Shown in pieces: positions 5,496 through 44,828 of a DNA stretch of 64,000 nucleotides (positions within the stretch are counted from its first letter, which is position 1; every line of letters begins with the position of its first letter). The position numbers and the translations under genes are program-made. The DNA comes from Alphaproteobacteria bacterium (GTDB lineage: Bacteria; Pseudomonadota; Alphaproteobacteria; Rickettsiales; SXRF01). The notes under the pieces are model-generated. The model made no database searches. It was not told the origin of the DNA and saw only the letters and a list, made by a program, of their open reading frames with translations. Location: the NCBI GenBank assembly GCA_033763575.1, contig JANRKF010000033.1, positions 6,278-70,277 on the forward strand, written 5' to 3'.

Positions 5496-5498
5496 AAG

Positions 5499-6443: not shown

Positions 6444-6449
6444 ATGCGG

Positions 6450-7538: not shown

Positions 7539-8271
7539 GGGCTTCGTTGAAGACACAGATCACATCCGGACCATGACGCAGCGTGAATCGGCCCGCCACA
7601 CGCTCCACCACGATATAATCGCCGCGTGTGCGATAGTTGATGAGCGATTCGTTGCCTTTATCATCCACCCAGAAGAACGCGGGCACTTCGGCATTCTTAT
7701 CGCGGAACTGGAAGTAGGTGAATTCGCCATCGTCGAAAATGCGGATGGGCGCGGTCACTTCCGGCCCGGAAATGGTGTAGTTGAAATTATATTTTTCCGG
7801 ATTTTCTTCAATGTCGGCATCAGGCACGCCGTCCAGCCCGGTGGTGATCGCCTGCAGGTCGCCCTCATCCTGATAAATAAAGCGCATGATAAAGGTCATG
7901 TCGGGATCGTTGATGTCATCGGTATCGCGGGCATGCAGCTCGAAAAGATAGGTGCGCTTGTTGGTGATGAGCGTCATGTTGGTCGTCGCGTCCTGATCGA
8001 TCGGCTTGAGGAAAAGGCGGTTGCCCGCCGGGTTCATCATCCACGCCGTCGAATCCCCCATGGAAATGGTCTCGATTTTCTCGTCTTTGGCGAACTCGAT
8101 CGAGGTTTGATAGCGGTAATGGCCGGTGAATTTATAGACTTCATCGGGCTGGTAGAGCATCGTGCGCACACGGTGATCGAGCTTGACAGGCCTTGGCTCA
8201 CGAGTAGCCGCCGCATCCCACGACACGCTCATGCAGGCAAGGAAGGCGAGAAAAGTGAAGCGCAGGTTCAT
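7507..8271 (-). CDS. virB9: type IV secretion VirB9/TrbG/CagX family protein
   Basis: Has a signal peptide, then the family pattern YKFTGHYRYQTSIEF...ISMGDSTAWMMNPAGNRLFLKP...TNMTLITNKRTYLFEL, then C-terminal IFDDGEFTYFQF. Confidence 0.85.
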   Translation of the reverse strand: MNLRFTFLAFLACMSVSWDAAATREPRPVKLDHRVRTMLYQPDEVYKFTGHYRYQTSIEFAKDEKIETISMGDSTAWMMNPAGNRLFLKPIDQDATTNMTLITNKRTYLFELHARDTDDINDPDMTFIMRFIYQDEGDLQAITTGLDGVPDADIEENPEKYNFNYTISGPEVTAPIRIFDDGEFTYFQFRDKNAEVPAFFWVDDKGNESLINYRTRGDYIVVERVAGRFTLRHGPDVICVFNEARHLPARAGSL

Positions 8272-9050
8272 GGGTTTTCCTGAAATATTTTACTGTTATA
8301 GCTCGTGACGGTAAACGTTACCGGCTTCACCTTATCAGCTTTTTCATCGAATTCAACGCCGCTGTATTGATAGGCGATGACAGCCTTGTGCCGGGTGGCC
8401 TGGCTGCGCTCCGCGTTCACCACGGTCGCGTCAAATACCACTTCCAGGGTATTGGCCGGCGATTCCAGCTTGCGCACCGATGCCACATCGATCAGGCGCA
8501 CCGAATGCCGTTCATACTTCACCACCGGGCTTTCGGGGTTGCTAACTTGCAGCATCTGCTGATATTGCGCCATCACCTCCGGCGAGGAGACGTGTGCGAC
8601 GCCGCTGTAATTGCGGTCCAGCTTGCTGATATTGTAGCTCTCATATTCATCGACATACACTTTTGCGAAGAAAAAAAGCACCGCGTCATCGACGCTCTGG
8701 TGAGGGCTGCTGCGCAGCGGCGCGATGCTCGGCACATCCTCCAGCACATCGTTCAGCGCATAAATAAACGGCACCGTGCGGGCCAGCGGATAAAGCGACT
8801 GCATGGCCGCGAATGCGCCTAAAAACGTCAGCAGCGCAATGGTCGTCACGAACACATAAAAATAACGCTCGGCCATCGGATCATTGACCGACAGGTCATA
8901 CATGCTGCGGGCCTCGCGGAAATACTCACCGCTACGGACTTTTTCCGCAATGTTCAGATATTCGTCGGGTGAGGGTTCTGTGTATTTCATAAGCCACTTG
9001 TCATCATACTCTTTTTCATAGAAAATGCCTAGCATGGAAAAGTTAAGCAT
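8268..9050 (-). CDS. virB8: VirB8-like type IV secretion protein
   Basis: 260 aa. Has one N-proximal TM helix (YFYVFVTTIALLTFLGAFAAM) and an NTF2-like body (FFAKVYVDEYESYN). Its stop overlaps the virB9 start at 8268-8271. Confidence 0.65.
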   Translation of the reverse strand: MLNFSMLGIFYEKEYDDKWLMKYTEPSPDEYLNIAEKVRSGEYFREARSMYDLSVNDPMAERYFYVFVTTIALLTFLGAFAAMQSLYPLARTVPFIYALNDVLEDVPSIAPLRSSPHQSVDDAVLFFFAKVYVDEYESYNISKLDRNYSGVAHVSSPEVMAQYQQMLQVSNPESPVVKYERHSVRLIDVASVRKLESPANTLEVVFDATVVNAERSQATRHKAVIAYQYSGVEFDEKADKVKPVTFTVTSYNSKIFQENP

Positions 9051-9177
9051 GGGTGAATATAGCGGCGTGGTGTGGGCGGCCTATCTGGTTGCTGCCGTGG
9101 TGCTGGGGGTATGTGTATGGCAAGCCCTGCGCGGCTTGCGGAAGGCCGAGCGCACGCTTAAGGGAATCGGCGAGTGA
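9049..9177 (+). CDS. ccmD: heme exporter protein CcmD
   Basis: Unlisted 42-codon ORF: MGEYSGVVWAAYLVAAVVLGVCVWQALRGLRKAERTLKGIGE. It has a single TM helix. Its TGA overlaps the GTG start of ccmE. There is an alternative in-frame ATG at 9034. Confidence 0.65.
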   Translation: MGEYSGVVWAAYLVAAVVLGVCVWQALRGLRKAERTLKGIGE

Positions 9178-9611
9178 AACCCAAACACCAACGGCTGGTA
9201 TTCGTGCTGGCGAGTGTGCTGTTCCTGTGCGCCGCCGTCCTGCTGGTGATGCAGGCTTTCAAGCAAAACCTCGTCTATTTTTATAGCCCAAGCGATATTG
9301 CAGGAAATCCGCCCGCACCCACACAAAAAATCCGCATCGGCGGGCTGGTGAAAACCGGCAGCATCGCGCAGGCCGATGACCGCGTGCGGTTCACCGTCAC
9401 CGACCAGCAACATGAGATCGAGGTGCGCTACCAGGGCGTGCTGCCTGCGCTGTTTCGTGAAGGGCAAGGGGTGATTGCCGAAGGGGTGATGGATGGCGCG
9501 CATTTCTCCGCCTCAACCATCCTTGCCAAGCATGATGAAAAATATATGCCGAAAGAAGTCGTCGATGCCTTGAAAAAAAGCGGGCATTGGGAAGGGCAAT
9601 ATGCTCGCTGA
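9174..9611 (+). CDS. ccmE: cytochrome c-type biogenesis heme chaperone CcmE
   Basis: 145 aa. Has an N-terminal TM anchor, then RIGGLV, GVIAEG and AKHDEKYMP (heme-binding His region). Confidence 0.9.
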   Translation: MKPKHQRLVFVLASVLFLCAAVLLVMQAFKQNLVYFYSPSDIAGNPPAPTQKIRIGGLVKTGSIAQADDRVRFTVTDQQHEIEVRYQGVLPALFREGQGVIAEGVMDGAHFSASTILAKHDEKYMPKEVVDALKKSGHWEGQYAR

Positions 9612-11454
9612 ACTTGCCGTTTTCGCGCTGGCGCTGGCGTTTTCCCTAAGCCTGCTTCAGGCCTTTTCACTCTATGAAAAGCGGCTTCTTCCGCTGCTTT
9701 CCCCGGGCTCATCACTTTCGGCGCTTCTGGTATTTCTGGCCTTTATCATCCTCATACTGCTGCGGATCGATTCCGATTTTACCGTGGCCAATGTCGCAGA
9801 GCATTCCAACCGCGCATTGCCACTGCTCTATAAAATCGCCGGGACGTGGGGCAACCATGAAGGATCGCTGCTGTTATGGGCGCTGGTGGTCACCGGTTTC
9901 GGCGCCTGCCTCGCTGGCCGCCATCCCCGCGCCGCCGCCATTCAAGCGCTGCTGGCTGCAGGTGTGCTGGCCTTTATCCTTGGCAGCTCCAACCCGTTTG
10001 AACGAATTTTCCCGCCGCCGCCGGATGGCAAGATGCTGAATCCATTGCTGCAGGATATCGCGCTTTCGCTGCATCCGCCGATGCTATATCTCGGCTATGT
10101 CGGTTTTTCGGCGGTATTTTCCCTCGCGCTCGCCGGGCTGTGGGAAAGGAAAATCGACCGCGCATGGGCCGAGGCCGCGCATCCATGGATCATGTTCGCA
10201 TGGTCGGCCCTCACCATGGGTATAGCGCTGGGTAGCTGGTGGGCATATCGCGAACTCGGCTGGGGCGGCTACTGGTTCTGGGACCCGGTGGAAAATGCCT
10301 CGCTCATGCCGTGGCTCGCGGCAACGGCGCTCCTGCATTCCAATATCGTGCTCAAAAAACGCGGGCAACTTGCACGCTGGGTGGCGCTGCTCGCCATACT
10401 CACCTTTGCGATGAGCCTGATCGGCACGTTCCTGGTGCGTTCCGGTGCCATCACCTCGGTGCATAGCTTCGCCAGCGATCCGGCACGCGGGCTGTATATT
10501 CTGGGCTATATCGCGCTCTCCATCGGCGGCGGGCTATGGCTCTACGGCGCACGGGCGGGCAGCCTTGCAGAGACTGCGCCGCTTCGTCCGGCTTCGCGTG
10601 AGGGCGCCATCGTCGTCAATAATTTATTCCTCACCACTGCCTGCGCTACCGTCCTGCTCGGCACGCTCTACCCAATGATCGCAGAGCTTGCGAGCGGTGC
10701 ACAAATCACCGTCGGCGCGCCTTATTTCAACAGCGTCGTGCTGCCGATACTGGCCGCACCCTTGCTGCTTGCCGCGCTCACCGCCTTCCTGCCGTGGAAA
10801 AAAGCGTCGCTCGCGCAGGTGGTTAAACGGGCGTGGTTTGCGTTCGCCGCTGCACTGGTGGTGGCTATGCTGGTGATGGCCGTGGTGGCGCAGGAAACAC
10901 TGCTGGCTGCCTGCGGGCTTGGGCTTGGGGCCTTCCTGATGGCGGGAAGCGCGCAGTGGCTGGCCGCCGGAAGATGGCGGATGCGGGGAAGCTGGCCGGT
11001 ATTCCTGGGGCATACGGGTGCAGCGATGATTGTGATCGGCATCACCGGCACCAGCCTGTGGAGCAAGCAGACCGAGAGTTTTGCCGGCATCGGCGATGAT
11101 ATTGCGCTCGCCGGTTATGTGCTGAACGTCGCCGGGGAAACCACGCTGGACAAACCGAATTACCAGGCGCAACGCCTGACCCTGCATGTGAAAAAAAATG
11201 GCGCGCATGTCACCACGCTCGCACCGGAATTCCGCCGCTATAAAATACAGGGCAGCGCCACCAGCGAGGCCGCCATCCACAGCACCGGCGCCTATGACCT
11301 CTATGCCGTGATCGGCGAAAAAAATGACAAGGGCAAAACCGCGCTGCGGATTTATTTTAAGCCCACCATCTCGTTTTTATGGCTCGGCGCGCTGGTGATC
11401 GCCAGCGGCGGTCTATTGGCAGGCACCATCTCCCTGCGAAGAAGGCGGCCATGA
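9601..11454 (+). CDS. ccmF: heme lyase CcmF
   Basis: 617-aa polytopic protein containing the WGGYWFWDPVEN tryptophan-rich motif. Confidence 0.95.
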   Translation: MLAELAVFALALAFSLSLLQAFSLYEKRLLPLLSPGSSLSALLVFLAFIILILLRIDSDFTVANVAEHSNRALPLLYKIAGTWGNHEGSLLLWALVVTGFGACLAGRHPRAAAIQALLAAGVLAFILGSSNPFERIFPPPPDGKMLNPLLQDIALSLHPPMLYLGYVGFSAVFSLALAGLWERKIDRAWAEAAHPWIMFAWSALTMGIALGSWWAYRELGWGGYWFWDPVENASLMPWLAATALLHSNIVLKKRGQLARWVALLAILTFAMSLIGTFLVRSGAITSVHSFASDPARGLYILGYIALSIGGGLWLYGARAGSLAETAPLRPASREGAIVVNNLFLTTACATVLLGTLYPMIAELASGAQITVGAPYFNSVVLPILAAPLLLAALTAFLPWKKASLAQVVKRAWFAFAAALVVAMLVMAVVAQETLLAACGLGLGAFLMAGSAQWLAAGRWRMRGSWPVFLGHTGAAMIVIGITGTSLWSKQTESFAGIGDDIALAGYVLNVAGETTLDKPNYQAQRLTLHVKKNGAHVTTLAPEFRRYKIQGSATSEAAIHSTGAYDLYAVIGEKNDKGKTALRIYFKPTISFLWLGALVIASGGLLAGTISLRRRRP

Positions 11455-11954
11455 AATTACTGCCGCTTGGAATTTTACTTGCGATATGCGCCCTGCTCGC
11501 TTTTGGCATGATGCGGAAAAATGACGCGCCGCCGGATTCGCCGCTCATTGGGAAAGCTTTTCCAGCGCTGGCTTTAGAAGGCCGCTCACTTCAGGAACTT
11601 TCCGCAAGGCAGGTAACGATTATCAATATTTTTGCAAGCTGGTGCGCTCCCTGCGCGCTGGAACAGCCGACGCTCTTGCGCTTCAAAGAAAAAAATATTG
11701 CACCCACCATCGGCATTGCATGGAAAAACAAACCCGGCGATGTGGCGCAGTGGCTGCAGGAACACGGCAATCCCTACACCCATTTACTGCATGATGAAAA
11801 AGGCGATATTACCGTGCCACTCTCGCTCACCGGCGTTCCGGAAACCTTCATCATCGATAAAGGCGGCGTGGTGCGCTATCACACCAGCCAGCCCATTACC
11901 GATGAGCACATGGCACAGGAAATCATTCCGCTAGTGGAAAGGTTGCAGCAATGA
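11451..11954 (+). CDS. ccmG: thiol:disulfide oxidoreductase CcmG/DsbE
   Basis: ATG 11451 overlaps the ccmF stop (ATGA). It has a TM anchor, a WCAPC active site and GVPETF. Confidence 0.9.
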   Translation: MKLLPLGILLAICALLAFGMMRKNDAPPDSPLIGKAFPALALEGRSLQELSARQVTIINIFASWCAPCALEQPTLLRFKEKNIAPTIGIAWKNKPGDVAQWLQEHGNPYTHLLHDEKGDITVPLSLTGVPETFIIDKGGVVRYHTSQPITDEHMAQEIIPLVERLQQ

Positions 11955-33555: not shown

Positions 33556-33631
33556 GATCCGGTAGCTCAGTCGGTAGAGCACCTGACTTTTAATCAGGTT
33601 GTCGCGGGTTCGATTCCCGCCCGGATCACCA
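33556..33631 (+). tRNA. tRNA-Lys (anticodon UUU), CCA encoded
   Basis: Cloverleaf read by eye: acceptor GATCCGG/CCGGATC, D arm GCTC-AGTCGGT-AGAGC, anticodon arm CCTGA-CTTTTAA-TCAGG, T arm GCGGG-TTCGATT-CCCGC, discriminator A plus CCA. Confidence 0.95.
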
Positions 33632-33695
33632 CCCTACGCCTGCGGCTTCGGGTGGCGCAGCCGCCTGATTGCCATTCTTAGGCAGAGGAGTGCCC

Positions 33696-34937
33696 TTGTC
33701 CGTGGAACTATCGCGCCGGGAAGCATTGCTGGGAATGGTGGGAATGGCGGCGACATTTGCCGCGCCTCGCCTCGCCACTGGCAACACACTGGGCGGTGCG
33801 ACGCCGCTCCCAACCCCGGAGTGGGACAACCTCAAAACGCATTTCCTGATCGACCCGAACCTCACCTATCTCAACACAGGTTCGCTGGGCGCGGTGCCGA
33901 AGATCGTGCTGGAAAAGGTCGCCGCCGAAAGCCGCGCACTGGAGCAAAATCCGGCGGATAATCAATATCAGCTATTTACTGAAAAACTATTCGCGGTAAA
34001 ACGCGCAGTGGCGGATTTCATCAATTGTAAAACCGACGAGCTGGTGATGACCGGCGGCACCACTGACGGCATGGCGCTGCTCATGGAAGCGCTGCCGCTG
34101 GAGCCGGGCCAGCGCGTGCTCATCACCGATAAGGAATATGGCCGTATCCGCGAATATTGGGAATATTACTGCAGGCGTGCCGGGGCAACGCTCGACATCG
34201 TGAAGCTGCCATTATTGCCACGCGACGAAGCGGAAATCGTGACGCTGGTTGCTGCGGCAATCCGCCCGGAAACCCGCGCACTCTGTATCAGCCATGTCAC
34301 CACCGCCAATGGGGTACGACTTCCGGTCAAAGCCATCGGTGAAGCCATCAAACACACAGACTGCCTGCTATTGGTCGATGGCGCACAGGCAGTGGGCGCT
34401 ATCGAGGTGGATGTGCAGGCGCTGGGGTGCGATGCCTATGCCGCCAGCGGTCATAAATGGCTCCTGGGACCGAAAGGAACCGGCTTTCTCTATGTCGCGG
34501 AACGGGCGAAGCAATCCTTCCCCTCGCCCAAGCTGAGCGGTGGTTATGGCGACCGCGCCAACACCATCAGCGCGCAGAATTTACCGAATATCATTGGGCT
34601 GGGCGCATCCCTTGAATGGCTAGCTAAACTCGACCATGCAAAACGCCATGAGCGGCTGAAACTGTTGCGCAGCAACCTTTACAACCGGCTTGCCGCGTTG
34701 GAATGCCTGGAATTGCTTAGTCCACCCTCGGAAAGCCCCCTTTCCTCGCCGCTGGTGGCGCTGCGGCTGCGCGATCCGGCAAAACGCAAGGGAATATTGG
34801 CAGCGGCGAGCAAAAAAGGCATATCAGTCAAAACCATGGGTGAACAGCAGGCCGTTGATCTGCGGGTCGGCTGCCATATATATAATAACGAACAAAATAT
34901 TGTGCGATTTATCGATTTTTTAATTGAATCTTGTTAG
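33696..34937 (+). CDS. class V aminotransferase-fold PLP enzyme with a putative Tat signal
   Basis: Twin-arginine motif SRREALLGMVGMAATFAAPRLA. Class V fold pattern (LNTGSLG, HVTTANG, ASGHKWLLGPKGTG). The start is uncertain (TTG 33669, TTG 33696 or GTG 33702). GAGGAG lies at 33685-33690. Confidence 0.8.
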   Translation: MSVELSRREALLGMVGMAATFAAPRLATGNTLGGATPLPTPEWDNLKTHFLIDPNLTYLNTGSLGAVPKIVLEKVAAESRALEQNPADNQYQLFTEKLFAVKRAVADFINCKTDELVMTGGTTDGMALLMEALPLEPGQRVLITDKEYGRIREYWEYYCRRAGATLDIVKLPLLPRDEAEIVTLVAAAIRPETRALCISHVTTANGVRLPVKAIGEAIKHTDCLLLVDGAQAVGAIEVDVQALGCDAYAASGHKWLLGPKGTGFLYVAERAKQSFPSPKLSGGYGDRANTISAQNLPNIIGLGASLEWLAKLDHAKRHERLKLLRSNLYNRLAALECLELLSPPSESPLSSPLVALRLRDPAKRKGILAAASKKGISVKTMGEQQAVDLRVGCHIYNNEQNIVRFIDFLIESC

Positions 34938-34999
34938 TATTGAGACAGTAGTAGTGTCTAGGCAGCGCTAATGCCTGTAAAAAAAACACCAGAAAGACG

Positions 35000-35695
35000 A
35001 TGCATAAAACCAGCTCCATTAAAATAAAAAACGGCTTTTCGCTGCTGGAACTGTCGATAGTATTGACCATCATCGGGCTGCTGGTCGGCGGTATTCTGGT
35101 CGGCAGAGCGCTGATACGCGCCTCAGAGGTTCGCTCGGTTGTGTCCGATGTCAACCGCCTCAAAACAGAAATCAGCACCTTCCGCCTGAAATACGGCACG
35201 CTTCCGGGCGATGCGATCAACGCCTCGACCTACCTTGGCGGTTCTGCCGTTAACGGCAACAACAATTCCCAGATTGATTACCTGCTCGGCCTGCCCGGCG
35301 AGGAATATTACGCATGGCAGCATCTTGCGCTCGCCAAAATGACGGCGGGTGATTATGACGGCTCCACCACCAACCTTCCAAAGTCCAGAATCAGCAACGG
35401 TTTTTACCGCATCTCTTACCAGACAAACGTGTATGGCAAGAGCGGCAACATGATCTCGTTCAACGCCCTGAACCAGACATTCAGCCTCGCGCATGATCCG
35501 ATCCTCAACCCTGCCGACGCCCATTCGATCGATGGAAAGCTGGACGATGGGCTAGCCGATAAAGGCCGGGTGCTGGCGTTTAATCCCGAAGGGGTTCCCG
35601 GCTGCGTCACCAACGATTACACCGCCGGTTCCGGTGACTACATCCTCACCAACAATTCGGTGCTGTGCAAAATGTTCTTCATCCTGGAATATTAG
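35000..35695 (+). CDS. prepilin-type N-terminal cleavage/methylation domain protein (type IV pilin/pseudopilin-like)
   Basis: KNGFSLLELSIVLTIIGLLVGGIL is the class III signal (G/FSLLE). The rest is a 200-aa variable globular part. Confidence 0.75.
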   Translation: MHKTSSIKIKNGFSLLELSIVLTIIGLLVGGILVGRALIRASEVRSVVSDVNRLKTEISTFRLKYGTLPGDAINASTYLGGSAVNGNNNSQIDYLLGLPGEEYYAWQHLALAKMTAGDYDGSTTNLPKSRISNGFYRISYQTNVYGKSGNMISFNALNQTFSLAHDPILNPADAHSIDGKLDDGLADKGRVLAFNPEGVPGCVTNDYTAGSGDYILTNNSVLCKMFFILEY

Positions 35696-37688
35696 GATCT
35701 CGTCCTAATGCTCGGTAGTATATCTCGTCATAGGCTTTCGCTGCACGAGTGATGGAATAATCATCAATAATCCGCTGCCTTCCCCTCTCCCGCCGCGCAC
35801 GCTTTTCTTCTTCCGGAAGGGCCAGTATCGCCGTCCAGGCCTCGACCAGCGATTTCGGATCGTCGGTAATGCTGTAGGTGATACCCACATCCTTCAGCAG
35901 TTCCGGCATAACCCCGGTGTGGGTGGCCACGCTCAGTGTTTTGCATGCCATGGCCTCCGTGACCACAAGCCCGAAGGCTTCAAATGAGGAGTTGAGCGTA
36001 TGGACATCAAGCGCCGAATAAATATCGGCCATATCATTGCGTATGCCCAGTATATGCACCCTGTCTTGCAATTCCAAGCTTGCGACCAGCTCTCGCAAAG
36101 CAATGTTTTCGGCCGTACGCTTGCCACAAAACAGAAAATGGGCATTCGGGTGCGACAATGAAAATAATTTAGCGGCGATCGTGAAATGCGGATGACGTTT
36201 GAGAACCGTGCCTTCGCTGGCCATGCCGATCAGCAGCGTATCATCGCTGATTCCAAGCTCCTCCCGGATGCGTTTCCTGCCTTCGGGGCTATATTGAAAC
36301 CTCTCGGCGTCAGTACCATTTTCAATGAGCGTGAGCAGTTTCTTCTTATAACCGAATTTACGGCAGGTGTCATAGGCCGGCTGTGAGCAACAGATGACGA
36401 TGCGGGGGATGAAGCGCCTGAGGAAGGTCTGCTGACGCACATCGAGCGGATAAGGCGGTTCCGGGTGCACATTATGAATACCCCAGATGACCGGCTTGCC
36501 GAGCAGCTTGGCCATGATGCCGCCAGCGATATTGGACGGCGGAAGCCACGTCGTGACGACATCGGGATCGGTCTCGCGGATGAAATCAAAACATTTCCTG
36601 TAACCTTCCGGATCCCACTTCCCATGCACCAGCTCGAAGCTTTTATAGGGGATGCCGTGTGTATGCTGAATATCAGCCAACCGCTCTCCCTGCTCAGACA
36701 GCGACAATACCATATGTTCGAATTTTTCATTATCGCTGCTGGCAAGCAGGCTGGTCATGATGCGTTCGGCACCGCCGGCATAGAACCATTTGGCTATATG
36801 CAACACCCGTATCCTGTCTCTTGGCACCCGCAGGCGACGCAATATCCCCTGCTGTTTCAGCATACGGAAATACTGCTTGCGATCGCGATAAACATACCAG
36901 AGATACTTATGGATCAGCCGCAGGTGAATAACGCGGTATTCGGCCAGTTTTTTCTCGCCGATGCGCTGGGTGACACGCGGATCGTTAAAAACATGGTCGA
37001 ACATCTTGAACAGCTCGGCGGGATTATCCGGCACCTCAGCCGACACATTCTTGCCATGTGTGCGCAGCGACAGCAGCACCCGGTCGCCGACATAGACGAT
37101 ATCGCCGAGCAGCGACAGGCGGCACCATGTCACCCAGTCTTCACCCTGACGTATGCGCTCGGGGAAATCGACTTTGGCCAACACTGCACGCCGCATACAG
37201 ATATTGCCATGGGAGAACAAAGGGCTGCCCTTCAGCAGCGACGGAAGCACATCGCCGGAGACAATATGCTCCGGCGGTGGCAGGATGCTGTCCCTGATAA
37301 AAGCGCCATCCTCCTCCATCCGCATTTTCCGCCCATACACACCGATGGCCTCAGGATGAGCGTCCATATTCTCAACCAGAAATGGAACCGCTCCCGGCAG
37401 CAGGATATCGTCGGCATCGAGGAAAATAATATAGTCGCCACGGGCGTTCATCACGCCGGTTCGCCGCGCAAGCGCCTGCCCCTGGTTCTTCTGGTGGATG
37501 AGCCGCACCTGTTTATAGGCCGAGCAAATGGCCGTGATTTCCATCTCGGCGGCGCGCTCCGATCCGTCATTCACCACCACGATCTCCAGATCATGATAAT
37601 TCTGCGCGAGGACCGAGCGGATCGCTTCGTCGAGAAATTTCGAGACGTTGTAGACGGGGATGACAATAGAAACATGCGGTGTTTTCAT
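35679..37688 (-). CDS. bifunctional glycosyltransferase (N-terminal GT2, C-terminal GT4)
   Basis: GT2 domain: VSIVIPVYNVSKFLDEAIRSVLAQ, VVNDGS, FLDADD. GT4 domain: the C-terminal half with EAFGLVVTEAMAC. It lies 7 nt downstream of the previous GT gene. Confidence 0.85.
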   Translation of the reverse strand: MKTPHVSIVIPVYNVSKFLDEAIRSVLAQNYHDLEIVVVNDGSERAAEMEITAICSAYKQVRLIHQKNQGQALARRTGVMNARGDYIIFLDADDILLPGAVPFLVENMDAHPEAIGVYGRKMRMEEDGAFIRDSILPPPEHIVSGDVLPSLLKGSPLFSHGNICMRRAVLAKVDFPERIRQGEDWVTWCRLSLLGDIVYVGDRVLLSLRTHGKNVSAEVPDNPAELFKMFDHVFNDPRVTQRIGEKKLAEYRVIHLRLIHKYLWYVYRDRKQYFRMLKQQGILRRLRVPRDRIRVLHIAKWFYAGGAERIMTSLLASSDNEKFEHMVLSLSEQGERLADIQHTHGIPYKSFELVHGKWDPEGYRKCFDFIRETDPDVVTTWLPPSNIAGGIMAKLLGKPVIWGIHNVHPEPPYPLDVRQQTFLRRFIPRIVICCSQPAYDTCRKFGYKKKLLTLIENGTDAERFQYSPEGRKRIREELGISDDTLLIGMASEGTVLKRHPHFTIAAKLFSLSHPNAHFLFCGKRTAENIALRELVASLELQDRVHILGIRNDMADIYSALDVHTLNSSFEAFGLVVTEAMACKTLSVATHTGVMPELLKDVGITYSITDDPKSLVEAWTAILALPEEEKRARRERGRQRIIDDYSITRAAKAYDEIYYRALGRDPNIPG

Positions 37689-37695
37689 GCGTGCA

Positions 37696-39780
37696 TTAGG
37701 CTCCCAATAACCGGCTCAACTGTTCGATTTGCCGGGGCACTGAAAAATATTTTTCTACTCTCGCCCGGCCTGCCATTCCCATCAGACGCCGCCCCGCATC
37801 CGCGAGCGCTTCCACCTGCATCACGGCATCGGCGAGCGTTGCCGGGGCGTTGGGCGGACAGAGTATGGCACATTCCTCGCCGACCAGATGCGGAATGTCA
37901 ATAAATTGAGTGGTGACGATCGGCAGCGCCATCGCCATCGCTTCTTTCAGCACCATCGGCGCGGTGTCGCGGCTGCCGTTGCCGCCCTGCCGGAACGGGG
38001 CGATCAAAGCGCGGTAGGCCGGGCCATGTTCACATAACCACGCGGAATTTTTTGCGCCGAGGAAACGAACATGCTCCTGCACGCCAAGCGTTTCGGCCAG
38101 CGATTGCAAGCTCTCACGCAGCTCGCCGTCACCCACCACATCCAGCGCCGGGCGCGATGGCTGCGGCAGCAACGCCCATGCGTGCAGCACATCGTCCAGC
38201 CCCTTGCAATCCACCATCCTGCCGACAAAAAGCCACCGCGCATGCCGCAGCGATGCATCGGCCAGCGGTGCAAAACGCCCGGTATCCACACCGCAATAAA
38301 CCGTGTGGCATGGCGTTTTCGGGGAGATTTTCTGCACATCGGCCGTAATGGTCGGCGCCACGGCAATCACGGCGCTGGCCCAGCGGCATTTCAATTCAAG
38401 ATCGAGCGGGCGGGCATATACGTCCGAACCGTGGCAGGTAAAGCTGACCGGAATCCCAAGCAATCTGGCCGCCGCAATCGCATAAGTAGCCGCACCCCAT
38501 GCGAAATGCGCGTGCACATGCTGGCAGCCATTTGTTTTAAGATGCTCGGCCATGTGCGCTGCATGCACTAAAAAAGCCCGGAGCGGTTCGGTGGTCTGCG
38601 ACAGGGCATAGGGCAGGATACGCCGGAATGTGAAAAAATATTTCCGCAGCAGCCGCGTCGATTCTTCGGAGCTGATACAAGGAAAATACAAGGTACGCGC
38701 CGCCAGCGGCGCATCCTCCGGCTGGTATTCGCCTTCCGGAGGGTGCAGCGCCACAAGCGTGACGCGGTGGCCGGCCTGCTCCATCGCCCGGATTTCCTGA
38801 CCGATAAAGGTCTCCGACATCACCGGGAAGCGCCCCAGCACATAGGCGATGCGCAGGTGGCCCTCCACACTCTTTCGTGGCTTATATTCCTGCGGCGCAA
38901 GGCGAAGCAGGCCCAGCACACGCCCGGCCATGAAGCAGCACACCATCATGGGATGCATCACCGGATGCGTACCGGACAGCGCATGACGGAACAGGCGGAA
39001 AGCATAGCGCCCGGAGTCTCCCATGGCATGCACGACCCGGCGTATGGCATGGCCATATCCTTCCAGCATGATATCGGAGGCGGTCATGGTCGCGCCGATA
39101 CGCAGGTGGCGGCGGGCAATCCACTGCCAGCGCGCCCGGCAGGCCGGAAGGCGGCTTTCCACCACCGCCTCATGACACATGACGATCGACGCGCCATGGC
39201 GTTTCGCACGGCGGAAAAAATGATGGTCGCTACCGCCGGTATGGGTGAAAACCGGGTCAAAGCGCAGGCCCATTTCGCGGCAGAGCCGGGTGGAGAACAG
39301 CACATTATTGGTCCATGCGCTGTCCAGCTCGGTGCCGGTGGGAGTAGGGTCCGGCGCAAAAATATCAAGCACGGAAAAATGGGCGTGCTGTTCATCAAAT
39401 GTATGAACCACGCGACCCTTCACCACCTCGGCCCGGCAGGCGACAGCACAGCGATAAAGCGCATCCAGCCATCCGGAATCGGCGATGTCGTCATCATCGA
39501 TGAAGGCGATGAAATCGCTCTCCATCGCTTCGGCAAGCGCCCGGTTGCGCGCATGCGGAATACCACGCCGTCCTTCCACCACATAACGCACGGGAAACGG
39601 CATGGCGGCGGATGAGACGGCATGTTCCGCCGAACGGGCCGGGTCGTTATCCACCACCAGCAGCGACACATCCACCCCTTCGGGAAGCACGAGCGCCTTG
39701 AGCGAAGCAAGCGTGTGCGCCAATGAATCGGGCCGCCCACAGGTGATGATGGCGATGGTGATCGAGGGGCGCGCACTCAT
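37696..39780 (-). CDS. bifunctional glycosyltransferase (N-terminal GT2, C-terminal GT4)
   Basis: GT2 domain: ITIAIITCGRPDSL, VVDND, FIDDDD. GT4-like C-terminal half: LFVGRMVDCKGLDD, PMVLKEAMAMALPIV. Its ATG overlaps the upstream stop (ATGA). Confidence 0.85.
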   Translation of the reverse strand: MSARPSITIAIITCGRPDSLAHTLASLKALVLPEGVDVSLLVVDNDPARSAEHAVSSAAMPFPVRYVVEGRRGIPHARNRALAEAMESDFIAFIDDDDIADSGWLDALYRCAVACRAEVVKGRVVHTFDEQHAHFSVLDIFAPDPTPTGTELDSAWTNNVLFSTRLCREMGLRFDPVFTHTGGSDHHFFRRAKRHGASIVMCHEAVVESRLPACRARWQWIARRHLRIGATMTASDIMLEGYGHAIRRVVHAMGDSGRYAFRLFRHALSGTHPVMHPMMVCCFMAGRVLGLLRLAPQEYKPRKSVEGHLRIAYVLGRFPVMSETFIGQEIRAMEQAGHRVTLVALHPPEGEYQPEDAPLAARTLYFPCISSEESTRLLRKYFFTFRRILPYALSQTTEPLRAFLVHAAHMAEHLKTNGCQHVHAHFAWGAATYAIAAARLLGIPVSFTCHGSDVYARPLDLELKCRWASAVIAVAPTITADVQKISPKTPCHTVYCGVDTGRFAPLADASLRHARWLFVGRMVDCKGLDDVLHAWALLPQPSRPALDVVGDGELRESLQSLAETLGVQEHVRFLGAKNSAWLCEHGPAYRALIAPFRQGGNGSRDTAPMVLKEAMAMALPIVTTQFIDIPHLVGEECAILCPPNAPATLADAVMQVEALADAGRRLMGMAGRARVEKYFSVPRQIEQLSRLLGA

Positions 39781-41030
39781 AACCAGAACCGCCTCGAATT
39801 ACGCAGAAAATATTTGACGGCGACCAGGATATCTTCATTCTCTTTTTGCCGCCACTGCCGCATCAACCATGCTTCACGTCGCCGGGAAAGCATGTTCCAG
39901 CGATCCTCATGACGCGCCGAAACGGCCATACGGGCATTCGCATATTCTTTTTCGACCTCCCGCCAGCGGTCTTCATGTTTTTGCACTGTATCCATCCAGT
40001 CCGCATGATAGTCGTCGAGCTGTTTTTCATGCGGCCTGCGGCGCGGCAGATCTTCCATATCGATTGCCTCAAGCGCTTTCAGCACTTCTTCCCTGCGCCG
40101 GTTGTGGTGGTCGGCGGCGGCCAGTTCCCGCGCCTTGAACTCCTGCAATCTTTTCTCCAGCCACGCATCAACTTTCTCAACCTCTCCTTTATATCGATCT
40201 TCCAACAGCGCAAAAGATGCGTTCCAATCCTCTTCACGTTCCGGATATTTTTTATATCGCTTACGCAGGCCGCCGATAAAAATACACAACGCTTTCCATT
40301 TTGCGGCGATAAAACCACGGTATTTTTTATGCAAATATAGAAGCGACCATTGGCTGCTTTGCATTCTTAACAATAATAATTCTTTTGTCACCGGGCAGGC
40401 ATGGCCGGGCTCGTGCCGCACGTCCAGCCCCTTCACCAGCAACAGGTCATACCCCGCCCTCCGGGTACGGATGGATATATCGTCATCCTCGTAAAACAGG
40501 AAAAAGGCGGGATCGAAAAAACCCACCTGACGCATCTGCTGCATGCGCCACAAAGCAATCGCACCGGACACAAAGCTCGCGGAAATAATGCGTGGATTAT
40601 CATAGCTCATCGGTGTTGGCAGCACATCAATTTCGATAGCGGAACCACGCAATGCTTTTGTGGTAGGGTAATGATCGTTACCTTCGATCAGCGGCGCGAT
40701 AATCGCCGCGTTCGGACAGGAATCGGCGTATTCCAGCAGTAATTCTATCGCCTCGGAAGCAATGGTCGCATCGGGGTTGAGCAACAAGGAAAATTCCGTC
40801 GCGACCAGTTCCAGCGCCTGGTTGCAGGCGGCGGCAAACCCGTAGTTCCCACGATTATTCAGCAGCCGCACACGCGGGAATTGCGTACGCACCAATTCGA
40901 GCGTAGAATCGCCGCTGGCATTATCGACGACGATGCACTGCGCCACACGCGGATGATTATACACACATCTGAGCGCGGCACTAATCACGTCGGCACTGTT
41001 ATAGGATACGATAACGGCGGTAATACGCAT
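39777..41030 (-). CDS. GT2 glycosyltransferase with a ~150-aa charged coiled-coil C-terminal extension
   Basis: ATG 41030 gives MRITAVIVSYNSADV. Contains VVDNASGD and FFLFYEDDDISIR. The tail is rich in E/R/K/W (EDRW repeats). Confidence 0.8.
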   Translation of the reverse strand: MRITAVIVSYNSADVISAALRCVYNHPRVAQCIVVDNASGDSTLELVRTQFPRVRLLNNRGNYGFAAACNQALELVATEFSLLLNPDATIASEAIELLLEYADSCPNAAIIAPLIEGNDHYPTTKALRGSAIEIDVLPTPMSYDNPRIISASFVSGAIALWRMQQMRQVGFFDPAFFLFYEDDDISIRTRRAGYDLLLVKGLDVRHEPGHACPVTKELLLLRMQSSQWSLLYLHKKYRGFIAAKWKALCIFIGGLRKRYKKYPEREEDWNASFALLEDRYKGEVEKVDAWLEKRLQEFKARELAAADHHNRRREEVLKALEAIDMEDLPRRRPHEKQLDDYHADWMDTVQKHEDRWREVEKEYANARMAVSARHEDRWNMLSRRREAWLMRQWRQKENEDILVAVKYFLRNSRRFWL

Positions 41031-41047
41031 AAAGACAGCAGGCACCA

Positions 41048-41899
41048 ATGGGTTCAACAGTTACAGAAGAGCGCGCTCTCGTCAGCGTTATTATCCCGAC
41101 CAAAAACCGGGACGCCTACTTAAGACAAGCGATCGACTCCATCTATACACAAACTTACCGGCATTTTGAAATCATAGTTATCGATGACGGCTCCAGCTAT
41201 GACATAAAAGCGTCGCTTGCAGGCTACGATGACCGCCTGCACTATTACGCACAGGCAGCGCAAGGCGCCGCCGCCGCCCGCAATCACGGGCTTGCAAAAG
41301 CCAAAGGCGAATTTGTCGCCTTCCTCGACGATGATGACCTCTATCTGCCCGCCCGCCTCGAACGCAGCGTGGCGGCGATGGGTAAGCACCCGGACGCGGT
41401 GTGGCTATGTTCCGGTTTTTCCTTCATCGATGCAAAGGGCGCGCCGCTCGACCGCCCGCCGATCATCCCGCTTAAAACCGAGGTGACGCTCCATGACATC
41501 GCCATGTTCACCTTCATCAGCACGCCCTCCGTGCTGGCGCGCCGCAAGGCGTTGCTGCGGGCGTGCGGATTCCCGGAAGGCGTCAAAGTCTCGGAGGATT
41601 ACCACACATGGGCGCGGGTGCTGGCGCTTGGCAAAGGGCTGGCGCTGCCGGAGGTGCTGGTGCGCGTCCGGCTGCATCCGGGCAATACTAAGCTCCCCTG
41701 CCATGCGCTGCTGCGGGAAAATACGCGGATTATCGATTACCTGCTCACCCACTACCAGCCAATGCTGATGCCACGGCGGCATTATATCGACAATTTATAC
41801 CGGATTATTAGTGAAAACCTGCGATATAAGCGGAAATGGCTGGCCTATGGCTGCTTCCACCTGCATCTTTTTATCAGGAGGGCCTTCGACAAGGGGTAA
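41048..41899 (+). CDS. GT2 glycosyltransferase
   Basis: Contains VSVIIPTKNRDAYLRQAIDSIYTQTY, IVIDDGS, FLDDDD. Confidence 0.85.
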   Translation: MGSTVTEERALVSVIIPTKNRDAYLRQAIDSIYTQTYRHFEIIVIDDGSSYDIKASLAGYDDRLHYYAQAAQGAAAARNHGLAKAKGEFVAFLDDDDLYLPARLERSVAAMGKHPDAVWLCSGFSFIDAKGAPLDRPPIIPLKTEVTLHDIAMFTFISTPSVLARRKALLRACGFPEGVKVSEDYHTWARVLALGKGLALPEVLVRVRLHPGNTKLPCHALLRENTRIIDYLLTHYQPMLMPRRHYIDNLYRIISENLRYKRKWLAYGCFHLHLFIRRAFDKG

Positions 41900-41990
41900 T
41901 TAATAGATTTTAAACCCTTTTACCTTTGTATAAAATAAGTAGATATAGTATGATAGTAGGATATAAACGGTTCAAACTCAGTTTAGAAAT

Positions 41991-42221
41991 ATGAAGCGCC
42001 GCACAAGTAAAAAAACGTCTTTCTCCGGTAAAATACGCCGCCACCGCCTGCCGCTTGCACTGCTGGTCGCGCTGTTTGGGTTCTGCTCGGATATTGGCGT
42101 GCGCCTCGGCATCTGGAGCAGCAATAATAACGGCGTCAGCGAAAGCGGACTGCTGCCGTATGAGAAACCCAACTTCCGTGCCTTCAGCGATATTTTTATC
42201 AGCGACGCTTTCGCGTCTTAA
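41991..42221 (+). CDS. small hypothetical membrane-anchored protein (76 aa)
   Basis: The ORF has GC-rich third codon positions. It has a basic N-terminus (KRRTSKK...RRHR) and one hydrophobic segment (LPLALLVALFGF). An AT-rich putative promoter region lies upstream. Confidence 0.35.
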   Translation: MKRRTSKKTSFSGKIRRHRLPLALLVALFGFCSDIGVRLGIWSSNNNGVSESGLLPYEKPNFRAFSDIFISDAFAS

Positions 42222-43105
42222 GCCACCTCACCTGAATCATCGAACGCGGAAAGCGGCAGCGTAACCTGCCGGAAATGGTGCGCGGCTTTTTCGGCTTCGC
42301 CATTCGCAGCATAGGCGCTGGCGAGATAGGTATGGATCCGGCACAGGCATTTTTCCTTTAGCTCGCGGCATTTTTCTTCACCCAGCGCCTGCGAAAACAC
42401 AGGATGAGCATGGATGGATTCATAGGCTGCCAGAATCAGCTCCGGATTTTCGATACCTTGTGCCGAGACATTTTTTCCATGCTTGCGCCGATGCAGCACC
42501 ACGCGGTTGCCGGCCGGAATAATCGTACCCACCAGCGCCAGGTGGCACCACAACACCCAGTCCTCTCCGACCGTCAGATGGGTGTTTTCTACGTCCAGTT
42601 TTTCCAGCGCCGCCTTGCGAATAATGATCGAGCCGTTACAGAAGGGAAGCTTCCGCTCCAGCAAAAACTCCAGCACCCGCGCCCCGGAGACAATCCTCGC
42701 ATCGGCAGGCATGATACCGCCGGTGAGACGCCCTCCTGCATCCATCATCTGCACCCGGCCATAGGAAGCGATCGCATCCGGGTGCTCACGCAACGCCCCA
42801 ACCAGGAAACCGAGTGCGCCGGGTTGCAACACATCATCTGCATCAAGGAAAAACACCAGCTCCCCGCTGGCATTCGCCACACCAAAATTCCGCGCCGCCG
42901 CCGCGCCGCCATGCGGTTGCTGCAGCAATTTCACCAAAGGATAGCGCTGGCAGATCGAGGCGATGACAGCGGCATTTTCCGGCGACGAACCATCATCCAC
43001 CACCAGCACCTCCTTATCGGCATAGTCCCCGCTGGCCGCAGATTGCACCGCTTCTTCAAGGAAGGCGGTGATTTCATATACCGGAATGATAATTGAAACA
43101 TGCAT
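42218..43105 (-). CDS. GT2 glycosyltransferase (paralog of the N-terminal domain of 35679..37688)
   Basis: ATG 43105 gives MHVSIIIPVYEITAFLEEAVQS. Contains VVDDGS, FLDADD and GEDWVLWCHLAL, which matches GEDWVTWCRLSL in the fusion protein. The track start is 43147. Confidence 0.85.
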   Translation of the reverse strand: MHVSIIIPVYEITAFLEEAVQSAASGDYADKEVLVVDDGSSPENAAVIASICQRYPLVKLLQQPHGGAAAARNFGVANASGELVFFLDADDVLQPGALGFLVGALREHPDAIASYGRVQMMDAGGRLTGGIMPADARIVSGARVLEFLLERKLPFCNGSIIIRKAALEKLDVENTHLTVGEDWVLWCHLALVGTIIPAGNRVVLHRRKHGKNVSAQGIENPELILAAYESIHAHPVFSQALGEEKCRELKEKCLCRIHTYLASAYAANGEAEKAAHHFRQVTLPLSAFDDSGEVA

Positions 43106-43159
43106 GGAGTGGAGGCTCCTCAAAACGTGGGCAGTTGATTTAAACACCCGGTATGCTAC

Positions 43160-43453
43160 ATGAGCGGACAGGTTTTATCAATTTACAGAGTCGCAATGCC
43201 ACAGATCAACACAAACAACGTATTCTGGCGGGAAAAGGACGGCGTGGTCACGGTGCTGGTGATTGCCACCGGCGAATATTTTGAATTCAACCGCGTGGGA
43301 AGCGCCGTGTGGAAAGGCATCGCCGAGGGCCTTGCCGCCGACGCGATTATCGACCGGCTCGCACAAACCTATGACACCACCCGCGAGCAACTGGCCATCG
43401 ATGTGCACGCCCTCATCGTTAAAATGATCGCCCGCGAATTGATTGAAGAGTAA
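43160..43453 (+). CDS. PqqD-family (RRE-like) small protein
   Basis: VFWREKDGVVTVLVIATGEYFEFNRVGSAVWKGIAEGLAADAIIDRLAQTYDTTREQLAIDVHALIVKMIARELIEE matches the PqqD pattern (N..G..IW..L). An alternative start is ATG 43196. Confidence 0.65.
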   Translation: MSGQVLSIYRVAMPQINTNNVFWREKDGVVTVLVIATGEYFEFNRVGSAVWKGIAEGLAADAIIDRLAQTYDTTREQLAIDVHALIVKMIARELIEE

Positions 43454-43455: not shown

Positions 43456-44775
43456 TCAGCGGCGAATGGAACGGTACACCACCACCACGAACAGCAGCCC
43501 GCCGATAATCGCCAGCAGCCCGCCAAGCCCCATGAAACCCAGCGCGATTTTGATGTTGGGCGCCAGTGCATCGACACCGCCTGCGGTTTTACGCAACACG
43601 CCGTAACCGCCGCTATACGCCAGCCCCGACACATGCATCACCTGCCCGGCGCCGTACAATATCGGCTGCCAGTAAGCCATGCGCCAGCCGGTGACCTCAC
43701 GATAGCCGAAACGCGGCAGCATCACATAGGCAAACGCCATGAACCCGATGGTGATGCCGACGATGGAGCCATGGTAATGCGCCGGGATCAACACGTTCTG
43801 CCCATGGATATAAGCCCCCAGGATATTCCCATACAGGAAGAGCAGTATCGACATGAGCAGCGCCGACCACAAGGCCCGCTTATCGCCATGGCGCAGCGAG
43901 CGAAGCGACAGAAGCCCCGGCAGGATCCATAGCGCCAGAACCGTCGGCGCCACGCCGTTGGCCGCGATCATCAGCGAGGTGAAGAACTGGCGGAACGGAG
44001 CAGATTCCAGATCATACAGCAGATAGGCCACCGGCGCGGCGCAGGCAGAAAGCAGGCCGATTGCAAACAGAATATAGAGATGCCGAGGAGGAATTTGAAA
44101 GATATGAAAAAGCGCCTGCGCCACCAGCAGCCAGCACAGCATGACGATTTGCACATGCACCAGTTGCAGCACATGCCCGCCGCCCCAGAACAGCATTTCA
44201 AAATATTGCACGCCCTCGAAAACCTGCGGCATCAGGCGGTAGGACCAGAGAAAACAGGCGATGGAAATCAGCGTAATCCAGCCCGCCGAAAGAATGCCGA
44301 AACGCACCGGCCCATCGAAACCGGCAAGCGACGAGGTGAATATTTTCACCAGCATAAAACCGACGCCGCACAGCAAAAACCCCAGCGCCATCAGGAATAT
44401 CGGGCTGCTGATCACCGGAATGTAATTGCTCATCAGCGCCTCGGCCTTCGGGTCGAACGGCGAGAGCATCATGAAGAGAATGGTCAGCGCGAAGCATGTC
44501 AAGGCCCCCTGCTCCAGCGGCAGGATGCTGCGGGCATGGGCCGTCGCCATGCTCCAGAACAGGCAGGCGATCGCCAAAAACCACACCAGCACCGATAAAT
44601 CCACATGCACCACCAGCGCGTCCTTGAAGATGCGCTGGATTTCCGGATTGTTGGAAAGCACCGGCGCGCGGCCGATCACCAGCGTCAGCGAATATAGCCC
44701 CGCCACCGCCAGCGCCACCACGCCAAGCAGAAGCCAGTAGCGGGAGAGAGTCTTTGGTCTTTGGTCTGTCGTCAT
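43456..44775 (-). CDS. polytopic membrane protein, heme-copper oxidase subunit I-like
   Basis: About 12 predicted TM helices. Conserved-looking His residues sit in helices (VVHVD; GGGHVLQLVHVQ; PAHYHG; VMHVSG). ATG 44775 (MTTDQRPK). The family assignment is tentative. Confidence 0.5.
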   Translation of the reverse strand: MTTDQRPKTLSRYWLLLGVVALAVAGLYSLTLVIGRAPVLSNNPEIQRIFKDALVVHVDLSVLVWFLAIACLFWSMATAHARSILPLEQGALTCFALTILFMMLSPFDPKAEALMSNYIPVISSPIFLMALGFLLCGVGFMLVKIFTSSLAGFDGPVRFGILSAGWITLISIACFLWSYRLMPQVFEGVQYFEMLFWGGGHVLQLVHVQIVMLCWLLVAQALFHIFQIPPRHLYILFAIGLLSACAAPVAYLLYDLESAPFRQFFTSLMIAANGVAPTVLALWILPGLLSLRSLRHGDKRALWSALLMSILLFLYGNILGAYIHGQNVLIPAHYHGSIVGITIGFMAFAYVMLPRFGYREVTGWRMAYWQPILYGAGQVMHVSGLAYSGGYGVLRKTAGGVDALAPNIKIALGFMGLGGLLAIIGGLLFVVVVYRSIRR

Positions 44776-44828
44776 GGGTATAGTAATATAGTGGTTGTAT
44801 TGAGGTGGCAATTCAATACAACAACGTC

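Follow-up and report, generated by a model that had tools for sequence, protein, structure and literature searches.

A rare gene module that links soluble glycosyltransferases to a PqqD-family protein, a small open reading frame, and a pseudopilin-family protein in an alphaproteobacterial genome

Introduction

Which molecule is built or modified by a cluster of glycosyltransferase (GT) genes that is bounded by genes for a type IV prepilin-like protein and a PqqD-family protein, and that contains no gene for the initiation or export of a polysaccharide? This question is raised by an island of 8.5 kb (positions 35000 to 43453) in a stretch of 64,000 nt of alphaproteobacterial DNA, hereafter the window, which lies on a 135-kb contig (C33) of genome G000. 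Coordinates refer to the window unless another contig or locus is named. An earlier note on this DNA proposed a system for protein or peptide glycosylation that might decorate the pilin-like protein. Its null model was an ATP-binding cassette (ABC)-transporter-dependent O-antigen or exopolysaccharide (EPS) locus with its transport genes elsewhere.

Gene content was established by listing open reading frames (ORFs) and scanning them with Pfam and NCBIfam. The direct observations concern gene content, domains, linkage, co-occurrence, a sequence motif, and purifying selection, and from these we infer all biochemical steps and the identity of the glycosylated molecule. The reading that we place first, tentatively and with rather less than even confidence, is that of a rare, patchily distributed, self-contained module that would glycosylate a protein or peptide encoded by the module itself, assisted by a recognition element for peptides synthesized ribosomally and modified post-translationally (RiPP recognition element, RRE).

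Results

Linkage of the pilin-like and PqqD-family genes to the glycosyltransferases

The island encodes seven GT domains spread over five genes, together with a prepilin-type protein, a PqqD-family protein, and an ORF of 76 codons. This inventory, with two GT2-GT4 fusion proteins (669 and 694 amino acids, aa) and three single GT2 proteins, was borne out by Pfam as the earlier note had given it. At the left end, the pilin-like gene (35000-35695, + strand) codes for a pseudopilin-family protein of 231 aa. It converges on the GT operon, and the two 3' ends share the 17 nt from 35679 to 35695 that had been reported. At the right end, the PqqD-family gene (43196-43453, + strand) codes for a protein of 85 aa with the RRE fold (Pfam PqqD, 49.7 bits against a cutoff of 23.4); the longest ORF in the Pfam scan began at 43160, and comparison with orthologs moves the start to 43196.

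Wherever enough sequence context was available, the ortholog of the pilin-like gene sat inside or beside a GT cluster; the arrangements number at least four, and the flanking genes are unrelated. The gene is convergent with the GT operon here, in the same-genus genome G002, and in the metagenome contigs L115, L116, and L117; in G052 and L139, it is on the same strand as these genes and downstream of them; and it stands between GT genes in G199, G251, and L118. In G269, it converges with the PqqD gene at a distance of 31 nt. The order in G002 is that of the present locus (tRNA-Lys, aminotransferase, pilin-like gene, GT genes, small ORF, GT2, PqqD), with the 283-aa GT2 missing and a mechanosensitive channel gene following PqqD. 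G052, which belongs to a different family of the order, has the full set of eight genes; they are rearranged there, and the pilin-like gene lies 3' of the GT2-GT4 fusion on the same strand. The pilin-like gene of G251 is placed between a GT2 of the 283-aa type and the fusion, all on one strand, and that of G199 between the second fusion and a GT2. Metagenome contigs L115, L116, L117, and L139 repeat the pattern amid wholly different flanking genes (histidine kinase, ZorA-like gene, DUF6384, and flavodoxin). The linkage spans three families of the order as well as unrelated metagenomes.

Locus L118 retains two GT2 genes along with PqqD, the small ORF, and the pilin-like gene; in place of the other GTs, it has a methyltransferase-GT2 fusion, a Fic protein, rmlB, and rmlA. 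L118 keeps the core and exchanges the other GTs, so that a constant core stands with variable glycan enzymes. As further observations on these operons, two variants carry additional genes for the modification of proteins or phosphoesters: the Fic-domain protein is encoded at L118:6760-7707 within the variant operon, and a protein of the Exo_endo_phos family is encoded at L139:3313-4290, directly after the pilin-like gene and within the operon.

The module is rare. Of 400 genomes sampled from the order, 5 had an ortholog of the GT2-GT4 protein. The PqqD ortholog occurred in the same five genomes, out of 401 sampled in the order, and was absent from 400 further genomes taken from across the class. 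All five genomes with the GT2-GT4 protein carry orthologs of both the pilin-like protein and PqqD; in two of them (G269 and G251), PqqD lies on a different contig from the GTs. A profile search begun independently from PqqD returned an ortholog group of 14 proteins at 118 to 157 bits, followed by a gap down to 51 bits. The contexts that it added are the small ORF, a GT2, and PqqD in L141, and a GT2-GT2 fusion with PqqD in L145 and L146. Glycan enzymes accompanied the PqqD ortholog without exception, and the pilin-like gene did so in most cases.

The PqqD ortholog also occurs in a different kind of cluster. In L143 (a contig of JGI 3300020797), a protein with 57% identity to the PqqD of the module heads a cluster (1608-11865) that continues with GT61, a DUF2946-like exported protein, a beta-barrel-like protein, a GT2, an ABC exporter of the MsbA/PglK type (ABC_membrane/ABC_tran), an acyltransferase, a methyltransferase, rmlC, and rmlD, and that holds neither a pilin-like gene nor an ORF with YExPxF. 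The GT2 of the L143/L144 cluster is related to the tailed GT2 of the island (see below).

The pilin-like protein and its ortholog group

The pilin-like protein has the class III signal KNG/FSLLE, the sequence reading KNG/FSLLELSIVLTIIGLL, so that G/F-x-x-x-E and a hydrophobic helix are both present, and it matches Pfam N_methyl and NCBIfam IV_pilin_GFxxxE (TIGR02532). Two C-terminal cysteines are invariant. The AlphaFold model (pLDDT, the predicted local distance difference test, of 79.7) shows a helix at residues 15 to 65 and a beta-sheet head, as expected of a pilin. A Foldseek search of this model against the PDB gave no match at E < 1; with no fold partner there for the head domain, a reading of it as a lectin or an enzyme is not possible. 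The genome provides machinery for such proteins, with PilB-, PilT-, PilU-, and CpaF-like ATPases and two Peptidase_A24 (A24 prepilin peptidase) genes.

About 11 paralogs of the protein, at 25 to 36% identity, are encoded in G000, none of them near GT genes. Searched in 201 genomes of the order, the family as a whole gave more than 1300 matches, spread over 146 of them. In a family of this size, the linkage might reflect chance or history, that is, one of many pilin-like paralogs having been inherited beside a variable GT island. However, the linked copy belongs to a separate ortholog group of 14 proteins that share 50 to 67% identity, the next match lying at no more than 41% in a search of 5.8 billion proteins. 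A profile of this group found exactly one high-scoring protein in each of five other genomes (240 to 380 bits, versus at most 150 for paralogs). Since the linkage is specific to this ortholog and has outlasted rearrangements and changes of flanking genes, co-location by chance is very improbable and for practical purposes excluded.

Two motifs (KYxxLPGD and DxKxDDG) were considered as ortholog-specific signals and discarded as uninformative, being, like NGNGN, common to paralogs. The paralogous prepilin-type family (~230 to 290 aa) shares KYxxLPGD, NG(N/D)G(N/D), and DxKxDDG. Its members in G000 include C1:21808-22539, C10:17837-18646, C13:108937-109641, C16:19317-20045, and C3:11671-12501; three more stand in tandem at C35:106395-108796, and most paralogs stand alone. 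Weaker relatives of the family were seen in a Phycisphaerae genome and an Ancylobacter genome.

A small conserved ORF with a motif of the recognition-element type

The small ORF (41991-42221, + strand) codes for 76 aa and has no Pfam or NCBIfam match. The ratio of nonsynonymous to synonymous substitution rates (dN/dS) between G000 and G002 was 0.23, similar to that of its neighbors PqqD (0.21) and the adjacent GT2 (0.19), and this sign of purifying selection indicates that the ORF is a real gene. Homologs of 65 to 100 aa were found at seven loci, the others being in G002, G052, L116, L117 (two tandem copies), L118, and L141. They have a basic N terminus, a hydrophobic core of ~12 residues followed by small residues, which resembles a signal peptide, an invariant Y-E-x-P-x-[F/L], and a tail of ~14 residues. 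The stretch that covers the motif reads ..GLLPYEKPNFRAFSDIFISDAFAS, and the tail ends with ..ISDAFAS in G000, the usual ending among homologs being (I/V)S(D/N)AFAS. The motif YExPx[F/L] is confined to the small ORF and occurs once per locus, or twice in L117, where the ORF is duplicated.

The motif is of the type of YxxPxL, the leader motif by which actinobacterial lasso precursors are recognized by a discrete PqqD-like B1 RRE (PMC6784204). The best NCBIfam match of the PqqD protein encoded here was to the lasso-peptide PqqD chaperone, at 40 bits and below the cutoff of 80. Judged from these sequence features, the small ORF would be a better fit to the PqqD domain as a ligand than the pilin-like protein is. 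The small ORF and the 295-aa GT2 are present or absent together, both being missing in L115, L145, and L146; this GT2 always adjoins PqqD and is convergent with or near the small ORF. In L118, the small ORF lies directly 3' of PqqD on the same strand. Neither a lasso cyclase (C, Asn-synthetase-like) nor a transglutaminase-like protease (B2) was present at 33.6 to 47 kb or in the related loci, and Pfam annotation of the module instances revealed no leader protease and no ABC exporter apart from that of the atypical L143.

The glycosyltransferase set

No convincing membrane segment was seen in any of the five GT proteins. The soluble 669-aa fusion (35679-37688, - strand) combines Glycos_transf_2 at residues 7 to 170 with Glyco_transf_4 and Glycos_transf_1 at 305 to 636. 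The second fusion, of 694 aa and likewise assigned by Pfam (37696-39780, - strand), overlaps by 4 nt the gene of a GT2 with a charged C-terminal tail (39777-41030, - strand; GT2 domain at residues 14 to 129). The 283-aa GT2 (41048-41899, + strand; 113 bits) and the 295-aa GT2 (42218-43105, - strand; 98.5 bits) complete the set. In the Pfam scan, longest ORFs gave bounds of 39777 to 41057 for the tailed GT2 and of 42218 to 43147 for the last of these GT2 proteins. Orthologs indicate that the true starts are probably 41030 for the former, with the TTG at 41057 as an alternative, and the ATG at 43105 for the latter, which is 309 aa long when counted from the GTG at 43147. As proposed earlier, this 309-aa GT2 and the GT2 half of the 669-aa fusion are paralogs (42 to 43% identity).

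The last ~160 residues (~164) of the tailed GT2 consist to 45% of D, E, K, or R and include 8 Trp. A long coiled-coil tail had been described for this protein; the charged tail of ~160 residues is present, but in most relatives the equivalent segment is an interdomain linker that joins two GT2 domains in one protein of 642 to 684 aa. The common form in relatives is such a GT2-charged linker-GT2 protein, then a separate GT4 of 385 to 392 aa, and then a GT2-GT4 fusion, whereas G000 and G269 have a GT2 with tail followed by two GT2-GT4 proteins. In most relatives, the 694-aa fusion is thus divided, its GT2 half being part of one protein with the upstream GT2 and its GT4 half being encoded separately. 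These split and fused forms were seen in G002, L115, L116, L117, and L136, and the single-protein form also in G269. Together, the five domains behave like a single assembly. Orthologs of the 283-aa GT2, at 43 to 55% identity, were found in G052, G269, G251, and L118 and were not found in G002.

In NCBIfam, the GT domains match generic polysaccharide GT families only, and the tailed GT2 gave a weak match to the SunS family (22 bits). The best solved relative of the 669-aa fusion is the chondroitin polymerase K4CP (1e-24), a generic GT2 match. Sequence searches of the PDB with three of the GT proteins gave generic GT2/GT4 matches only (chondroitin polymerase, GalT1, PglI, and ArnC), which say nothing on the acceptor. 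A scan of the 669-aa fusion against genome contigs was likewise set aside, as it returned just generic GT2 relatives from unrelated phyla, with no information on the synteny of the module.

Genes for polysaccharide initiation and export

The earlier note saw no exporter, initiating transferase, or nucleotide-sugar genes in the island, and family searches confirmed that exporter, flippase, initiating transferase, and sugar-nucleotide genes are lacking there. Across contig C33, there was no match to ABC2_membrane, Bac_transf, Glycos_transf_4 (WecA/MraY family), Polysacc_synt (PF01943), or Wzy_C, and none of ~12 pilin-linked instances of the module included an exporter, flippase, or initiating transferase. 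The search was extended to the whole of the G000 assembly (1.94 Mb, 92% complete). ABC2_membrane matches were found on C24, C28, and C26 only, and neither Bac_transf nor a flippase of the PF01943 type was found.

C28 carries a wzm/wzt-like pair with rmlA, fdtA, and fdtB, and with GTs of its own. This locus (G000:C28:900-11400, L031) contains rmlA, the ABC-2 permease, the ABC ATPase, a GT61-like protein, fdtA, a DegT-type aminotransferase, two GT2 genes, and an acyltransferase_3 gene, which suggests a polymer that contains a dTDP-3-amino-3,6-dideoxyhexose. A candidate initiating transferase, a polyprenyl-phosphate N-acetylhexosamine-1-phosphate transferase (PNPT) of the WecA/WbpL type, is present on C11, unlinked to the island. 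It is followed by a WbpM/CapD-type dehydratase (G000:C11:25005-27883, L007:7006-9884), and the two genes lie between mutL and purH, away from other glycan genes. The sole Wzy_C protein of the genome, a WaaL-like ligase on C13, is encoded between GT2 and GT4 genes of the lipopolysaccharide (LPS) core type and has just the Wzy_C domain, without PglL_A or Wzy_C_2. No Wzy_C gene adjoined any ortholog of the pilin-like gene. Among the other genomes with the module, four of five also have a Wzy_C protein and a second PNPT; neither was seen in G251, whose assembly is fragmented and 94% complete. A separate observation is that the best ABC2_membrane match of the genome (C24:21746-22516, 114 bits) has no ABC ATPase among its scanned neighbors; argD and a Bax1-I family protein flank it.

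These genes bear on the main rival explanation, an ordinary block for a lipid-linked surface glycan (O-antigen, capsule, or EPS). Its soluble GTs would lengthen an undecaprenyl-linked primer supplied by the WecA/WbpL-type enzyme of C11, and the glycan would be exported by the Wzm/Wzt pair of C28 or another ABC exporter and ligated by the WaaL-like protein of C13, with the pilin-like protein, PqqD, and the small ORF as accessory regulators, anchors, or passengers. We regard this as a serious possibility, albeit a doubtful one. The required parts exist elsewhere in G000, and Wzy_C and a second PNPT accompany the module in most of the genomes that carry it. A charged helical linker within multi-domain GTs is characteristic of ABC-transporter-dependent polymer synthesis (WbdA/WbdD and WbbB), and both the number and the architecture of the GTs found here conform to this type, as do their generic family matches. 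Moreover, rmlB and rmlA lie beside the module in L118, and an ABC exporter and rml genes lie beside PqqD in L143. It is because the genome holds wzm/wzt, a WecA/WbpL-type initiator, and a WaaL-like ligase, and because of the L143 context, that the polysaccharide null model stays alive.

The null model is physically possible in that transport genes do lie elsewhere, yet the wzm/wzt locus on C28 is already equipped with GTs, which counts against it. In none of the ~12 instances does the module include or adjoin wzm/wzt, a flippase, or an initiator, and G251 has neither Wzy_C nor the second PNPT, with the reservation on its assembly made above. Two observations that the earlier note had named as favoring the polysaccharide model were not made: wzm/wzt and an initiating transferase do not lie immediately outside the window and are on other contigs, and the same GT set did not turn up in classical O-antigen loci, its companions in every relative being orthologs of the pilin-like protein, PqqD, or both. 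A lipid-linked block also leaves unexplained the strict co-occurrence of a PqqD fold, one specific pseudopilin ortholog, and a small ORF with an RRE-type motif.

Surroundings and composition of the island

The tRNA-Lys(UUU) gene, which the earlier note placed close to the island, was located at 33556-33631. No copy of the tRNA 3' end flanks the island (there was no shared 12-mer), and no recombinase-type ORF was found among the ORFs scanned with Pfam at ~33.6 to 47 kb, a scan in which integrase families were not searched for directly. The G+C content of the island (0.561) is close to that of the whole window (0.566), so that its composition is not foreign. With no repeat of the tRNA end, no recombinase among the scanned ORFs, and the same G+C content, the proximity of the tRNA carries little weight, and a tRNA-linked genomic island is unsupported.

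The AT-rich breaks noted at about 34920-35000 and 41900-41990 are real, with G+C contents of 0.37 and 0.24, respectively, compared with 0.56 for the island. The first (34920-34999, + strand), 5' of the pilin-like gene, is probably a promoter region; a scan of it for sigma-70 sites gave no consensus match. The second (41900-41990, + strand), 5' of the small ORF, contains one promoter-like match, TTTAAA-16-TAAAAT, at 41909-41936. Counts from the promoter and terminator scan were not above those of shuffled controls.

On the left, a class V aminotransferase-fold protein is encoded between tRNA-Lys and the island (33669-34937, + strand). It lies beside the island elsewhere only in G002 and was not found in the same-genus genome G001. 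Being absent from the instances other than G002, it was placed outside the module. On the right, a multi-pass membrane protein of 451 aa (43456-44811, - strand) adjoins ctaA; it has no Pfam match here, and its ortholog in G002 has a precomputed match to COX1 (PF00115). This protein and ctaA were also placed outside the module, since they lie elsewhere in G002 and are absent from the other instances. In G002, the 451-aa protein lies on the opposite side of tgt, from which it follows that a rearrangement separates the two species. An empty site could not be defined in G001, where the region is fragmented.

Discussion

Considering the conserved linkage, which supports a functional tie of the GTs to a protein or peptide, and given that the peptide-binding fold is accompanied by a matching small ORF, a peptide or protein would be the substrate or an obligatory partner of the module, and for this reason we rank RRE-assisted glycosylation first. 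PqqD is a peptide-binding fold that is not known to take part in the assembly of polysaccharides. The earlier idea of protein or peptide glycosylation is partly upheld as regards this tie, more for the small peptide and less for the pilin as the acceptor.

A possible mechanism is as follows. The 85-aa PqqD-fold protein would act as the recognition element and bind YExPx[F/L] of the small prepeptide in the cytoplasm. It would present the C-terminal tail of the peptide to the neighboring soluble GT2, and the remaining soluble GT2/GT4 domains (GT2-linker-GT2, GT4, and GT2-GT4) would lengthen the glycan from nucleotide sugars. The signal-peptide-like N terminus could then carry the product over the inner membrane. 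Prepilin peptidase would process the pseudopilin-family protein, and the type IV pilus machinery would handle it. As the fixed partner of the module, this protein would serve as another acceptor or, at the surface, as carrier or receptor for the product. In its specific form, in which the PqqD-fold adaptor brings a Sec-exported peptide, and perhaps the prepilin, to the GT2/GT4 assembly line and the glycopeptide works with or is displayed on the pseudopilin, RRE-guided glycosylation is somewhat unlikely on the present sequence evidence.

Several observations weigh against RRE-assisted glycosylation. L115, L145, and L146 keep PqqD without the small ORF and its GT2, and in L143/L144 the PqqD ortholog belongs to another glycan cluster that lacks the pilin-like gene. 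YxxPx[F/L] is a short motif, and the PqqD protein scores below the cutoffs of the lasso models. Five to seven GT domains with a long charged interdomain linker are more like an assembly that builds a polymer than one that tailors a peptide, and a bulky glycan would be hard to pass through Sec. The wzm/wzt pair, the WecA/WbpL-type initiator, and the WaaL-like ligase elsewhere in the genome count on the same side. Finally, the pilin as acceptor poses a problem of topology, because its head domain would be periplasmic and out of reach of soluble cytoplasmic GTs.

This last problem would be solved if the pilin were glycosylated en bloc, with a lipid-linked oligosaccharide being flipped and then moved in the periplasm onto the pilin-like protein by an O-oligosaccharyltransferase of the Wzy_C type (compare TfpO/PilO and PglL). 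The tight and specific linkage of the pilin-like ortholog to the GTs would fit such a route, and the genome has a Wzy_C protein and the WbpL-like/WbpM-like pair. It is nonetheless improbable: no instance has a Wzy_C gene adjoining the pilin-like gene, the sole Wzy_C protein lacks PglL_A and Wzy_C_2 and is encoded among LPS-core-like GT genes, no PF01943-type flippase was found, and neither PqqD nor the small ORF would have a role.

Should RRE-assisted glycosylation be correct, it would provide a biochemical role for pairings of RRE and GT2 known hitherto from genome mining alone, and the few bacterial routes known for the glycosylation of pilin-type proteins or peptides would be joined by a cytoplasmic, PqqD-assisted one. 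One member of a very large, unstudied pseudopilin family of small-genome alphaproteobacteria would also gain a defined partner system. If glycosylation is RRE guided in the sense described above, the module would represent the first example of such guidance, and its glycosylated ribosomal product would form a new class with ties to the biology of pili. If the locus is instead an O-antigen or EPS block, the constant presence of PqqD and the pseudopilin would amount to an unexplained accessory layer on polysaccharide synthesis.

A search for literature on PqqD, glycosyltransferases, and pilins together found no relevant paper, and as far as the searched literature shows, the combination of genes is rare, conserved, and undescribed. 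Several known systems share parts of it. Pilin glycosylation systems (TfpO/PilO, PglL, and TfpW) likewise have glycosylation genes linked to a specific prepilin-type gene, but their linked gene codes for a membrane oligosaccharyltransferase of the Wzy_C family or a GT-C enzyme, whereas soluble GT2/GT4 proteins and PqqD are linked here and no such transferase is adjacent. ABC-transporter-dependent O-antigen systems (WbdA/WbdD and WbbB) have soluble multi-domain GT2/GT4 proteins with a long charged helical segment, as found here, and wzm/wzt is present in the genome. In contrast to those systems, wzm/wzt, the initiator, and the sugar-nucleotide genes lie on other contigs with their own GTs, and among the relatives searched the GT set was never in a classical O-antigen locus.

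In glycocins (sublancin/SunS and thurandacin/ThuS), a GT2 glycosylates a ribosomal peptide in the cytoplasm prior to export, and the weak SunS-family match of the tailed GT2 recalls them. Unlike the module, their GTs work without a PqqD-like partner and attach one sugar only, and their clusters hold an ABC exporter and thiol-disulfide enzymes, neither of which is present here. The B1/RRE pathways of lasso peptides resemble the module in having a small stand-alone PqqD-fold protein and an adjacent ORF with Y-x-x-P-x-[F/L]. They differ from it in that the module has no lasso cyclase, leader protease, or dedicated exporter, its partners are GT2/GT4 proteins, its small ORF has a signal-peptide-like N terminus, and its PqqD scores under the cutoffs of the lasso families. 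Fusions of an RRE to GT2 (PF00535) have been reported from genome mining alone, as uncharacterized RRE-Finder predictions (PMC7470986 and PMC12710340). They share with the module the pairing of a recognition-element fold with a GT2; in the module, however, the RRE is a separate protein that is accompanied by several GTs, and a pseudopilin-family gene belongs to the conserved set.

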